DNA of 8,795 nucleotides from a virus. Its lineage: Duplodnaviria; Heunggongvirae; Uroviricota; Caudoviricetes. Within the stretch, counting starts at the first letter, position 1, and the number at the start of each line of letters is the position of its first letter. Positions 1,682 through 4,536 of the stretch are shown here, piece by piece. The stretch lies in IMG/VR virus record IMGVR_UViG_2526164665_000039; one strand, 5' to 3'. The notes below the pieces were generated by a model. It saw only the letters and a list, made by a program, of their open reading frames with translations. It was not told the origin of the DNA and made no database searches. A program made the position numbers and the translations under genes.

Positions 1682-1852
1682 ATGGATAAAGAGCCTGTTT
1701 GCCCTGCCTGTAAGACTCCCTTACAGCTCATCTATCGCCGTTCTCGATCTCAAAATGGCAAGACATACAAACCCCAAAATGCGTCCTGTTTCAGGATGCT
1801 GATATGTCCTGCCTGTTCTCCCCGGAGGGAAAGTACACAAAACGTGCATTAA
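1682..1852 (+). CDS. Small zinc-ribbon protein (56 aa), function unknown
   Basis: ATG at 1682 lies 7 nt after AAGGAG. Product MDKEPVCPACKTPL...CFRMLICPACS carries paired CPxC motifs. It is convergent with the minus-strand small genes, and a hairpin follows the stop. Confidence 0.45.
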   Translation: MDKEPVCPACKTPLQLIYRRSRSQNGKTYKPQNASCFRMLICPACSPRRESTQNVH

Positions 1853-1861
1853 CAAATTCAC

Positions 1862-1881
1862 CCGGCAGGGAAACCTGCCGG
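1862..1881. terminator. Hairpin between convergent genes, weak bidirectional terminator candidate
   Basis: Perfect 8-bp stem CCGGCAGG / CCTGCCGG with a GAAA loop, lying between the stop of the plus-strand gene (1852) and the stop of the minus-strand gene (1891). Flanks are only moderately U-rich on either strand. Confidence 0.35.
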
Positions 1882-1890
1882 TCGGTATTG

Positions 1891-2136
1891 TTACATCATA
1901 GTACCGTCAGTTCCGGGCTGAACCGGCTCTGGTTGCTCTACGGCTTGAGGCTCATTCTCCGTGCTGTTTTCAGCCGGAGAATGGCCAACCATTCGGGCCA
2001 GCACTTCATCAACATATGCGTCGATTTGTGCCTCAAAATCCTTGCGAACCTGCGCCTTCAGCACGCGGTTCACTTCTTCAGAATAAAGTGCCTGTTTGAC
2101 AAGCTCTTCAGTAACCGTGCCTTTAATCTCTGGCAT
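1891..2136 (-). CDS. Hypothetical acidic protein (81 aa)
   Basis: ATG at 2136 follows AAGGAG with a 7-8 nt spacer. The product has a helical-looking N-terminus and an acidic, Pro/Glu-rich C-terminus. It sits 35 nt downstream of the 60-aa membrane protein gene, so the two probably form an operon. Confidence 0.55.
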   Translation of the reverse strand: MPEIKGTVTEELVKQALYSEEVNRVLKAQVRKDFEAQIDAYVDEVLARMVGHSPAENSTENEPQAVEQPEPVQPGTDGTMM

Positions 2137-2171
2137 GAATATTCTCCTTTTGCAGGTATATTGCCCCGTTA

Positions 2172-2354
2172 TCAGAGCGGGGTCGGGTCGTTTGGGGATG
2201 ACGGTGCCTGTGCTGTTTTACTGAGTTTTTCAGCTGCCGCATCATCAATTTTACGGCGAATATAATTTCTGATGACCTTATAACCGCCGCTCACCAGATA
2301 TAACGCACTGACCACTGCGCAGAAATAAAGCAGCATTGTATGAACGAATGTCAT
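2172..2354 (-). CDS. Small single-pass membrane protein (60 aa), function unknown
   Basis: ATG at 2354 with an upstream AAGGTAAGG SD-like stretch. The product has one hydrophobic helix (MLLYFCAVVSALYLVSGGY) followed by a basic then acidic tail. Confidence 0.5.
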   Translation of the reverse strand: MTFVHTMLLYFCAVVSALYLVSGGYKVIRNYIRRKIDDAAAEKLSKTAQAPSSPNDPTPL

Positions 2355-2422
2355 ATAACCTTACCTTTGATATTGACTACATAATTCGTTATCGGGTAAA
2401 AACATCGAAGCGACTGATAACC

Positions 2423-2447
2423 ACTCCTTCGGGAGTATTTTTATTTT
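2423..2447 (+). terminator. Plus-strand intrinsic terminator candidate (small hairpin with UUCG loop plus U-tract)
   Basis: ACTCC ttcg GGAGT followed by ATTTTTATTTT. The stem is only 5 bp, so the call is weak. Confidence 0.3.
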
Positions 2448-2466
2448 CCTTTATGGGTTAGGTAGC

Positions 2467-2504
2467 TCCCGCCAGCCATATCATGACCGGCGGGATTTTT
2501 TATT
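2467..2504 (+). terminator. Plus-strand intrinsic terminator candidate
   Basis: 7-bp GC-rich stem TCCCGCC (2467-2473) / GGCGGGA (2489-2495) followed by TTTTTTATT. It is oriented for plus-strand transcripts although the flanking genes are on the minus strand. Confidence 0.4.
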
Positions 2505-2543
2505 CTGTTACCGCTTTTTTCACTTCCACCACAATGCTGTCAA

Positions 2544-2951
2544 TCAGCACCGGGTAAGTTGCATTTTTGTGATATCCGTTACGCGGAGTTTGTCCACCGG
2601 GAAAGTTCCTACTGGTGACTGCGTCAGGGTAAACGCGGCACCATCCTGACCATCAATAACCGGAATAACCTGAAGGCTGTTATTTCCTGCAAAACGGAAG
2701 GCCAGCGTATGCCATTCATTATCAAATGCACCAAAGGTTCCCAGTTTCTGGTTATTTGTTGCCACTTTTGCATTGTGGTACATCACATTCAGGTCTTTTG
2801 CGTCTGTCTGGATGTAGAACGATGCCAGCAGATTATTCCCTGCATCCCCTGTCAGGGTGACACCCTGCGGCAGAGAGGAAACCGGCCAGTAAAGCGCCAT
2901 GACATACTGGTTGCCACCGGTCGCCCGGTACTTTAAAACGACAACTGATTA
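2544..2951 (-). pseudogene. C-terminal portion of the esterase gene in a shifted frame (frameshift or sequencing error)
   Basis: This frame is open from a stop at 2949-2951 down to 2544 and overlaps the end of the 567-codon ORF. It encodes protein-like sequence (SVVVLKYRATGGNQYVMALYWPV...), whereas the tail of the long ORF after about 2950 looks non-native (CRFKVPGDRWQPVCHG...). A +1 shift is implied near 2945-2952 (ggtggtttaatcag). Confidence 0.4.
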
Positions 2952-4536
2952 AACCACCATTTTTCAGCAGTTCAGCACCAGTACCGGCATCATGATCCAG
3001 ATACCAGGATGATTTACCTGTTTCCTTGGTCAGTTTCATTGCCTTACCACCTGTGCCTCCTGCATCACTGATAATTTCAGCTTTACCGCCAGCCGGCTCC
3101 CAGCCCTGGGCTTTCAGATTTCCTTCTGACTCACTGACACGGTAAGACAGCAGTGTTGTGGTTACTGCTTCAGTTTCTGAAGGTGACGGCACTGGTGCTT
3201 CAGTTTCAGAAGATGGAACATCGGCTTTTACTGTGGTTCGCCCCGCATGAGTCAGAACTGCCGTGGCCAGACGGTCGGAAATAATCCCACGACGTGCCCA
3301 TGAACTGAAATGGCTGGCCCGGTCCGTAGATGTCCAGGTGGCGGCACTGTTACGCCACGTTGAGCCGTAATAACCAATGGATTCAATATCCGGGTCTTCT
3401 GCCGGATTGTTGGTGGGTACATTCGCGCCATTTTCATCTGTCATTAATGGGACGAAATGAATGTTTTTATCTGTTTTATTTTTGTAGCCGTCATAGATTG
3501 CCTGGTATGCCTGTTCGTTTTTCTGTTTCCAGAAATACGTGGTATCACCACAAATCCACGGAACGCCAGCAGCACTGCCACCGGTACACTGTTCCGCCTG
3601 TTCAGCCAGGTCTGCGCGGAATTTTTCCACCATCGCCAGAAACAGCGCAGAATGCTCCGTCGGCTTCGCATCAATATCAAACTCGCCCTGCATCCACACC
3701 ACAGCAAGCAGGCGGTTTTTCGGGTTCTTCGCCAGTGCCGCTTTTGTCCGGCTGATTAAGTCCTTATACAGCGGCTTATCCACACCCCAGCGGGCTGAGT
3801 CCTCTGAAGCACCCGTGCTGTCACTGTACGTGCCGTCAGCACCCGCCGTGAATGCAGAACCACCACGGCAGCAGGGAACCAGCAGAATCCCCGCATCTGC
3901 CGGAATAAACGGCAGCAGTTTTTTGGCAATGTGAAGCCCCTGACCCACGGTGCCATATTGCCCTTTAGCCACATCCGCTTTCGGGTGATTTTTTCCACTC
4001 ATATCCTGCACATCATGCAGACAGTGGTCGGCCAGAATGATGTCGTTATACTGACAGGCTTTACCTCCCGGCGTGACTGTACTGCGACGGGCTAACTGCA
4101 TAATACGCGGTTCGGGGCGGTCATATGTCTCCGGCAGTGGCAGACCTTCACCGTAAGCCATACCGTTTGACTGACCAGCAAGAACCACCACGTAATACCA
4201 GGAAGGGGAGCTGGAAGCAGTTTCATTTCCTGACGGACGGGTATGTGTTTCAGCATTATCCCAGTCTGACGGTTCAGCAGTACCGGCAACATCAGCACTT
4301 AACGGAATGACCGCACCAATACCCGCTCCGGTAATTTCCACACTCGGATCACCGGATACTGGCCTTACCCACAGGCAATCCCGTGTATTAAAACTGATGA
4401 GACAGTCAGCAAATGTCATTCCTCCTTTTGTTTCGGCCGGAGGAAAGGGAGCCTCAAGAAATGCCGCTGTACCACCGGAAACTTTAACAGTAAAGTTTCC
4501 GGGCATTGATGATAGTTGAACCCATTTGGACGTCAT
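2833..4536 (-). CDS. SASA/SGNH-family carbohydrate esterase, sialate O-acetylesterase-like (resembles prophage NanS-p), reading frame interrupted near its 3' end
   Basis: 567-codon ORF with an ATG at 4536. An LAGQSNGM block sits about 125 aa in, matching the GQSN catalytic-serine motif of SASA/DUF303 esterases. An N-terminal domain of about 120 aa and a Pro/Ser/Thr/Glu-rich linker (SETEAPVPSPSETEA) precede a C-terminal domain. The true 3' end is uncertain. Confidence 0.6.
   Translation of the reverse strand: MTSKWVQLSSMPGNFTVKVSGGTAAFLEAPFPPAETKGGMTFADCLISFNTRDCLWVRPVSGDPSVEITGAGIGAVIPLSADVAGTAEPSDWDNAETHTRPSGNETASSSPSWYYVVVLAGQSNGMAYGEGLPLPETYDRPEPRIMQLARRSTVTPGGKACQYNDIILADHCLHDVQDMSGKNHPKADVAKGQYGTVGQGLHIAKKLLPFIPADAGILLVPCCRGGSAFTAGADGTYSDSTGASEDSARWGVDKPLYKDLISRTKAALAKNPKNRLLAVVWMQGEFDIDAKPTEHSALFLAMVEKFRADLAEQAEQCTGGSAAGVPWICGDTTYFWKQKNEQAYQAIYDGYKNKTDKNIHFVPLMTDENGANVPTNNPAEDPDIESIGYYGSTWRNSAATWTSTDRASHFSSWARRGIISDRLATAVLTHAGRTTVKADVPSSETEAPVPSPSETEAVTTTLLSYRVSESEGNLKAQGWEPAGGKAEIISDAGGTGGKAMKLTKETGKSSWYLDHDAGTGAELLKNGGLISCRFKVPGDRWQPVCHGALLAGFLSAAGCHPDRGCRE

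Follow-up and report, generated by a model that had tools for sequence, protein, structure and literature searches.

Escherichia coli K-12 carries a chromosomal sialate O-acetylesterase, NanS (YjhS), which is exported and belongs to the nan regulon. Prophage-encoded esterases, NanS-p, are a known enzyme family with a known role in the use of O-acetylated sialic acids, and their enzymatic activity and the growth on 5-N-acetyl-9-O-acetylneuraminic acid (Neu5,9Ac2) have been summarised for lambdoid alleles (PMC8065619). NanS-p of Shiga-toxin (Stx) and other lambdoid phages, e.g., 933Wp42 (z1466) of 933W, gp84 (vb_24B_21) of phi24B and gp44 of phage 1717, have an N-terminal DUF1737 domain followed by a catalytic SASA domain and a lectin-like domain, and are encoded between Q/stx and the holin gene, with open reading frames (ORFs) for DUF826 and DUF1378 located between nanS-p and S (PMC10462455). 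In phi24B, gp84 is reported to be a capsid decoration protein, its DUF1737 docking as a hexamer on the capsid hexons, and to be cut at linkers containing SSP (bioRxiv 10.64898/2026.04.10.717836). Here we describe a predicted esterase of this type in another setting, between the DNA invertase gene gin and the com-mom genes at the right end of a Mu-like prophage, contained in the 8,795-nt viral record IMGVR_UViG_2526164665_000039 (IMG/VR), the whole of which is referred to below as the window.

In phage Mu (NC_000929) a gap of 94 bp separates the end of gin (35673) from the start of com (35768), as expected by a first-pass annotation of the window, in which com-mom was said to follow gin closely in Mu; in the Yersinia Muvirus vB_YpM_3 the gap is 58 bp. 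The window shares with Mu, D108, SfMu and the Yersinia Muviruses the order and orientation of the fibre genes, the invertase, com and mom, but the gin stop and the com start are separated by 3355 bp (1281-4635), compared to 58-94 bp in Mu-type right ends. The first-pass annotation had delimited a variable cargo island at 1682-4536, that is, from the second ATG of a zinc-ribbon ORF to the start codon of an esterase, and had listed an esterase, two small genes and a zinc-ribbon gene. All these ORFs are located as listed, and the interval is indeed accessory DNA, absent from Mu, D108, SfMu, the Yersinia Muviruses and all relatives with Mom at most 83% identical to that of the window; the esterase, however, is a single 679-aa gene in the relatives and is broken by frameshifts here.

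The esterase block between gin and com

We consider the interval to be an accessory block centred on a predicted NanS-p-type 9-O-acetyl-sialic-acid esterase, with a probability of about 0.8. All members of one E. coli Mu-like lineage have the block in the gin-com interval, and Mu proper lacks it. According to the Pfam scan and the ORFs, the interval contains the esterase, DUF1378 and DUF826 genes and, on the opposite strand, the zinc-ribbon gene:

4636-5196, minus strand: gin-type DNA invertase gene (PF00239 Resolvase and PF02796 HTH_7), the upstream border of the interval
4537-4635, minus strand: 99-bp spacer between gin and the esterase gene (from the sequence)
2500-4536, minus strand: gene of a NanS-p-type sialate O-acetylesterase, 679 aa if intact (Pfam and PDB sequence matches)
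4237-4536, minus strand: N-terminal domain of the esterase, aa 1-100
3253-4227, minus strand: SASA domain of the esterase, aa 104-428 (PF03629, E 3.5e-12)
2503-3162, minus strand: lectin-like C-terminal domain of the esterase, aa 459-679 (PF20350 DUF6645, E 5.7e-61)
2833-4536 and 2544-2900, minus strand: ORFs of 567 and 118 aa, into which the esterase is broken by frameshifts
2172-2354, minus strand: gene of a 60-aa DUF1378 protein with a hydrophobic N-terminus (PF07125, E 1.2e-38)
1891-2136, minus strand: gene of an 81-aa DUF826 protein (PF05696, E 2.1e-15; phrog_311)
1658-1852, plus strand: small CPxC...CPxC zinc-ribbon gene, encoding 64 aa if read from the ATG at 1658 and 56 aa if read from that at 1682

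The catalytic core of the esterase (aa 104-428) is homologous to chromosomal NanS (PDB 3pt5, E 5e-118), with the segments lagqsngmaygeg and shfs aligned; both the nucleophile Ser (GQSN) and the His (SHFS) are kept, and this region is intact in the window ORF. The 3pt5 chain of 337 residues has neither an N-terminal domain nor a lectin-like C-terminal domain, whereas the esterase has both. Residues 459-674 of the intact allele from E. coli O157:H7 Z1813, whose Mu-like prophage within puuB is 99.9% identical to 257-8795 of the window, match the NanS-p C-terminal domain (PDB 6yp6, E 3e-112), a lectin-like jelly-roll solved for the phi24B protein, which is split by frameshifts in the window. The segment 2511-4202 shares 77-81% nucleotide identity with nanS-p of approximately 300 mostly Stx phages; the matching phage records number 301, mostly of Stx phages and annotated as yjhS or 9-O-acetyl-N-acetylneuraminic acid deacetylase. 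The SASA and lectin-like domains are thus the same as in the lambdoid proteins, but no Pfam match to DUF1737 (PF08410) is found in the window esterase, and its N-terminus is 16% identical to that of phage 1717 over 62 aligned columns; judging by these comparisons, an unrelated N-terminal domain of about 100 aa stands in place of DUF1737. The location is also different, as the gene is found not in a lambdoid late region between Q/stx and the holin gene, but between gin and com of a Mu-like myovirus.

Lambdoid phages have these three genes too, identically ordered and oriented. In PhiR5_2 the order is esterase-DUF1378-DUF826-holin-R-Rz (holin, lysozyme, Rz), and in phage 1717 DUF1378 directly follows the esterase. 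DUF1378 is present in 309 phage records, a number close to that of the esterase, with closely parallel counts by organism class. In the Mu-like phage both small genes accompany the esterase with no holin nearby, and the block, unlike lambdoid nanS-p, has no adjacent lysis cassette. From the parallel counts and this holin-free setting we infer that DUF1378 and DUF826 functionally belong with the esterase. A nucleotide search of the DUF1378-DUF826 segment in phages yielded matches only in two Mu-like inserts.

For the distribution of the block, 80 Mom-encoding viral contigs from IMG/VR and 24 loci from species-representative genomes were tabulated. The esterase, DUF1378 and DUF826 genes are all present in 26 of the 26 IMG/VR loci whose Mom is 97% or more identical to that of the window, the gin-com distance being 3285-3685 bp, and in none of the 54 viral loci with Mom at most 83% identical, where gin, if present, is 127-235 bp from com. 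The three genes are found in none of the 24 species-representative loci, and gin, where present, is there located within approximately 300 bp of com-mom. Moreover, all seven annotated relatives have the block: six E. coli chromosomes, both Shiga-toxin-producing (STEC) and non-STEC, and one Mu-like prophage nested in an Stx phage record. Since the block is present in all loci at or above 97% Mom identity and in the seven relatives, the lineage has a fixed gene content here, and the island is old. The word "variable" in the first-pass description therefore does not apply to the gene content, while it is appropriate for the alleles, for a slot beside com and for mom. The same annotation had named, as the observation that would speak against cargo, an identical content in all relatives with core phage functions; close relatives do share the content, but its functions are not those of the phage core, and distant relatives lack the island.

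In the literature searched, no paper was found that links NanS-p to a Mu-like prophage and none that describes a Mu-like variant; the enzyme family is known, and the novelty lies in its domain architecture and in the phage that carries it. The Mu-like variant provides a natural comparison both for the role of the N-terminal domain and for the question of whether DUF1378 and DUF826 are tied to the esterase rather than to lysis, and this lineage adds nanS-p copies that surveys focused on Stx phages would overlook.

By analogy with the tested NanS-p enzymes, the esterase would strip O-acetyl groups from mucin-derived Neu5,9Ac2 for use by the lysogen population. As it has no signal peptide, it would act after phage-mediated lysis or as a component of the particle. 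Since no strong terminator-like site is found in the gin-esterase spacer (4537-4635), the esterase may be co-transcribed with gin, which would provide low-level transcription in lysogens. The block would be common to the Mu-like lineage and the lambdoid late region via old horizontal exchange, and would still recombine with the several nanS-p copies in STEC genomes. Such exchange is suggested by the window allele, which is closer to gp44 of phage 1717 (81% identity in the SASA domain, 79% in the C-terminal domain) than to the Mu-like allele of E. coli M3 (69 and 73%, respectively).

Several points weigh against this interpretation. The esterase of the window has three frameshifts in the C-terminal domain. 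The substrate may differ and could be, e.g., O-acetylated O-antigen or capsule, not sialic acid. Unequal rates, rather than recombination, could explain why the esterase body is closer to lambdoid alleles. Finally, DUF1378 and DUF826 are 44-53% identical to the lambdoid versions, with no nucleotide match outside the Mu-like lineage, a divergence that weakens any inference on the direction and date of the transfer.

Mosaic alleles and the exchangeable slot beside com

Allele combinations in the loci with Mom at least 97% identical are mosaic. Identity of the esterase to that of the window is 99, 93, 65-67, 60-61 or 53%, that of DUF1378 ranges from 57 to 100%, and DUF826 is either 96-100% or approximately 70% identical, with 97-100% for Mom and 92-100% for gp48. 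Two of the strains, E. coli M3 (locus L032) and E. coli CI5 (L039), lack gin, which implies a fixed fibre orientation; the esterase block is kept there, with the esterase directly after the fibre-assembly gene.

The sole truly interchangeable piece of the interval is a slot of 0.6-0.9 kb between the DUF826 terminator and the com promoter, occupied in 27 sequences by three unrelated cassettes:

about 1376-1860, plus strand: variable slot, with cassette type A in the window (similarity to M3 and 23CRST047 is lost at about 1375 and returns at the terminator of DUF826)
cassette type A, about 615 bp: zinc-ribbon gene; 9 sequences
cassette type B, about 720 bp: 86-aa gene; 10 sequences, and 18 complete genomes
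cassette type C, 855-933 bp: 76-aa ORF; 8 sequences

Exchange is also observed at the place of mom. In E. coli DETEC-S792 (L034, 4963-6169) and in the Mu-like insert in the Stx1a phage LC727895 (L001, 3173-4376), at sites corresponding to 389-1280 of the window, com is kept (96% identity) and mom is replaced by a gene of a 350-aa C5-cytosine methyltransferase (PF00145), which overlaps com as mom does; hence, an alternative DNA-modification gene appears to be under Com-type translational control. Com-mom of the window type is present in 233 of 5426 complete E. coli genomes, about seven of which keep less than most of the region; in the two inspected, com is kept and mom is lost. With three slot cassettes and mom swapped in two relatives, the right end of the prophage does exchange functions, as the first-pass annotation had supposed.

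The zinc-ribbon ORF, whose ATG at 1682 is preceded by AGGAG 8 nt upstream, is a real gene, because an ORF likewise divergent from com in an esterase-less Mu-like phage with Mom 83% identical (L065) encodes a protein 52% identical to it (E 3e-20) with all four cysteines kept. In L065 this homologue is the first gene of a leftward operon of four genes (6183-7480; 61, 108, 81 and 122 aa), divergent from com and located in place of gin and the island; the second gene product is 30% identical to that of the type B ORF (E 1e-11), and no family could be assigned to the operon beyond a marginal PADLOC match of one ORF to PD-T4-7 (E 0.0025). As the operon holds both homologues, the type A and type B cassettes may be distinct remnants of an older operon. 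The zinc-ribbon gene is dispensable, given two observations in relatives. In those of the UTAK-13 type one extra G (window 1682-1700; L003 2141-2605) fuses it to an upstream ORF, and in another relative Cys is changed to Tyr at the first ligand of the zinc ribbon. The 154-aa fused protein is annotated in RefSeq, with the window-type sequence labelled "frameshifted", but the upstream part of the fusion, which runs across a variable hairpin and the com promoter region, is probably non-coding. The zinc-ribbon protein has no Pfam match above the cut-off, and a word-index search yielded near-identical sequences only. We also considered it as a relative of Com, and direct comparison gave no meaningful similarity.

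Alternative readings of the interval

The frameshifts suggest that the esterase could be dead in this genome, with the island eroding by mutation and functionless here. Compared to Z1813, the window has single-base deletions at 2496, 2564, 2913 and 2919, all within 424 bp; the first one is inside a terminator, and the other three are inside the esterase coding sequence, truncating the lectin-like domain. Moreover, these deletions are shared by none of the complete E. coli genomes, the best match being 99.1% identical. On the other hand, three of the four deletions occur in T runs, and they cluster in a part of the esterase gene present in up to seven copies per genome, where polishing or assembly errors are to be expected; the remaining 8.1 kb of the window differs from Z1813 by five substitutions and no indels, and the esterase is intact in all annotated relatives. 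The frameshifts thus represent either a private pseudogene or a polishing artefact, mis-polishing being a real possibility in view of the multi-copy nanS-p region, and the window copy would be either inactive or mis-assembled. On this balance we regard loss of the esterase as a tentative reading, somewhat on the doubtful side. 

The two readings that remove the esterase from the centre are much weaker. A defence or counter-defence island beside the anti-restriction gene mom, the proposal of the first-pass annotation, would fit the replacement of mom behind com by the C5-cytosine methyltransferase, i.e., a neighbouring position exchangeable for anti-restriction functions, as well as the three unrelated small-gene cassettes in the slot and the four-gene operon at the equivalent place in L065. 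However, a scan with PADLOC-DB 2.0, in which island proteins were tested up to E 0.1, found no match for six island proteins, including the esterase, DUF1378, DUF826 and the zinc-ribbon protein, nor for the tested ORFs of the alternative cassettes and the small ORFs of Salmonella described below; the single signal is the marginal one in L065, and approximately 2.6 kb of the interval is taken by a member of an esterase family whose activity on carbohydrates is demonstrated, together with its two syntenic partners. We therefore consider this reading improbable, and see the island as a conserved and largely explained block rather than a defence hotspot, in which the exchangeable parts are the small slot beside com and mom itself. 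Still less credible, and in our opinion nearly negligible, is the recent insertion of a mobile element with hairpins at its ends. Inverted repeats do occur close to both ends of the interval, and hairpins, which the first-pass annotation had taken as the bounds of the island, exist at five sites, but they are mutually different, terminator-shaped and form no matched pair of ends. Neither flanking direct repeats (target-site duplication) nor matching terminal inverted repeats were found at the island borders, and the GC content of the interval is the same as that of the neighbouring genes. The same position is held by alleles 53-67% identical and by a Salmonella homologue (29-36% identity in the N-terminal part), which indicates old residence.

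A different alternative keeps the esterase and changes its place of action. The esterase may be virion-associated, with the N-terminal domain anchoring it to the capsid, baseplate or fibre of the Mu-like particle in the way DUF1737 does on phi24B, and would then aid mucus adherence or de-O-acetylation of surface glycans in infection rather than, or besides, feeding the lysogen. The phi24B precedent of capsid-binding DUF1737 (bioRxiv 10.64898/2026.04.10.717836) is in favour of this, since it is precisely DUF1737 that is replaced in the Mu-like esterase, the catalytic and lectin domains being retained. According to exhaustive HMMER and profile searches, homologues of the N-terminal domain are found solely at the N-termini of SASA esterases, and in three of three readable neighbourhoods the esterase with this domain is located after a gin-type invertase; the gene in the window is directly preceded by the tail-fibre and invertase genes. 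Moreover, the linker at the corresponding junction of the Mu-like protein contains ASSSPSW, and the esterase has a weak match to a PHROG "tail protein" (E 4e-5). On the contrary side, the N-terminal domain has no sequence similarity to known structural proteins in Pfam or PHROG. Also, the AlphaFold model of aa 1-159, built from a six-sequence alignment, is of low confidence (mean predicted local distance difference test score, pLDDT, 46.6, with about 65 for a small all-beta domain at aa 1-78), and Foldseek searches of this model against viral models and PDB return only unnamed small phage proteins and cupin-like barrels (E 0.01-0.04). Taken together, we regard display on the virion as possible but rather unlikely. 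Its most specific version, in which aa 1-100 are a virion-docking domain replacing DUF1737, the same mucin-directed esterase-lectin pair is carried by a contractile-tailed transposable phage, and DUF1378 and DUF826 serve as assembly or processing partners, is more speculative still; if true, phage-displayed sialate esterases would be a portable two-part design with an exchangeable anchor and a constant enzyme. 

The N-terminal domain was followed in other sources. The exhaustive HMMER search yielded five matches, three of them fragments of the same esterase type; a 1445-aa repetitive protein among the candidates was regarded as a compositional match. A word-index protein search retrieved truncated relatives from Escherichia, Shigella and Salmonella only, and none of the island proteins matches an NCBIfam family. 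In a Salmonella Mu-like prophage the order is gp45, gp46, baseplate J, gp48, fibre genes, resolvase, two small ORFs, and then the esterase, at the same position after gin. The two ORFs between gin and the esterase (Salmonella enterica, L036, 7426-7910) encode 58 and 87 aa, the latter with a sub-threshold Xre-like helix-turn-helix match, and the contig end falls inside the esterase; the gin-proximal junction thus varies between genera. Two short metagenome contigs contain an esterase with approximately 60-65% identity after a resolvase and a fragment of an S-like fibre gene, and this esterase protein is also on record from Shigella sonnei. Virion-borne esterases of the SGNH type, e.g., tailspike deacetylases, are another example of such chemistry encoded beside tail-fibre genes. 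The window esterase resembles these only at the level of the fold class and by the weak PHROG match.

com-mom, hairpins and prophage context

The remaining features of the window comprise the com-mom region with the hairpins, the structural genes and the host flank:

389-1126, minus strand: mom, DNA adenine modification, anti-restriction (PF25680, E 4.5e-77)
1080-1280, minus strand: com, zinc-ribbon translational activator of mom (PF10122 Zn_ribbon_Com, E 3.3e-12)
1281-1500, no strand: regulatory region preceding com-mom (aligned to Mu and YpM_3)
1550-1579, minus strand: hairpin, a perfect 12-bp stem-loop, followed on the com-sense strand by CCCTTTATGT, a T-containing tract
1850-1893, no strand: GC-rich inverted repeat, located where the zinc-ribbon and DUF826 genes converge and conserved across cassette types
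2407-2436 and 2467-2495, no strand: two terminator-like hairpins downstream of the esterase (inverted-repeat and terminator scans)
4561-4612, no strand: weak 9-bp repeat (inverted-repeat scan)
6308-7273, minus strand: tail fibre S (ORF and domain scan)
7219-7779, minus strand: gp48-like protein (ORF and domain scan)
7770-8765, minus strand: baseplate J (ORF and domain scan)
1-256, no strand: host chromosome flank (similarity to independently inserted relatives begins at 255-261)

The com-mom genes are of the Mu type. Amino acid identity to the Mu proteins is 80% for Mom and 75% for Gin; com, annotated in relatives as a 201-nt coding sequence, overlaps the start of mom (1080-1126), and, as in Mu, a GATC cluster is located upstream of com. 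Five of the 15 GATC sites of the window (1328, 1341, 1452, 1463 and 1498) fall within 171 bp, and the palindrome AATCGATCG...CGATCGATT aligns to the GATC cluster upstream of Mu com. By analogy with Mu, these sites would serve Dam/OxyR control, and their clustering is compatible with Dam dependence having been retained. An 11-mer, CTGTATAAAAA (1478-1488, com-sense), equals the codons for LYKK near the C-terminus of Mu Gin and has the same relative position upstream of the GATC cluster. We considered whether it is what remains, next to the mom promoter, of the 3' end of an ancestral gin, and rejected this as too weak, the match being just these 11 nt and a seven-residue peptide.

The stem at 1550-1579 is observed in three sequence versions, with arms GGTCCAGATAG, ACCCAGCATAG and GACCCAGATAG, pairing being kept in each because the substitutions and one insertion occur in both arms; a terminator role is probable, and the stem would shield com-mom from upstream transcription. 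The repeat at 1850-1893 is probably a bidirectional terminator. Past the stop of the esterase the sequence reads TAAAAAAATCCCGCCGG...CTGGCGGGA, with the hairpin 2467-2495 following the stop. An Rfam scan over the whole window, up to E 1, found nothing except a chance small RNA match in the host flank.

From right to left, the minus-strand order is baseplate J, gp48-like protein, fibre S, the invertible fibre segment, gin, the interval, com and mom. An inverted repeat of approximately 183 bp (5259-5442 and 6512-6694, with 75% identity when compared with Z1813) lies on either side of the fibre-assembly gene and an alternative fibre C-terminus, and presumably represents the two ends of the segment inverted by Gin. 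The prophage whose right end makes up the window is a Mu-like one of the Sp18 type, from STEC. As similarity to independently inserted relatives starts at 255-261, positions 1-256 are ascribed to the host chromosome, and the prophage right end begins at about 257; the flank is matched in 5405 of 5426 E. coli genomes, far above the number carrying the prophage. Prophage relatives 98% identical to the window are found at varied chromosomal sites in O157, O26, O145, O111 and O103 strains, as expected for a phage that transposes. Sp18 of E. coli O157:H7 Sakai is described, in the passages devoted to it, as an apparently intact Mu-like prophage, with no mention there of the esterase block (PMC2669165). 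Compared by this description, it is very probably of the same phage type as the window, the frameshifts of which are absent from the relatives.

The lambdoid Aeromonas phage pAEv1818 (L007, 4980-5702) encodes a Mom homologue, 71% identical, between the antiterminator Q and holin genes, that is, in the slot occupied by stx and nanS-p in Stx phages, and cargo thus appears in both the lambdoid Q-holin slot and the Mu right end.

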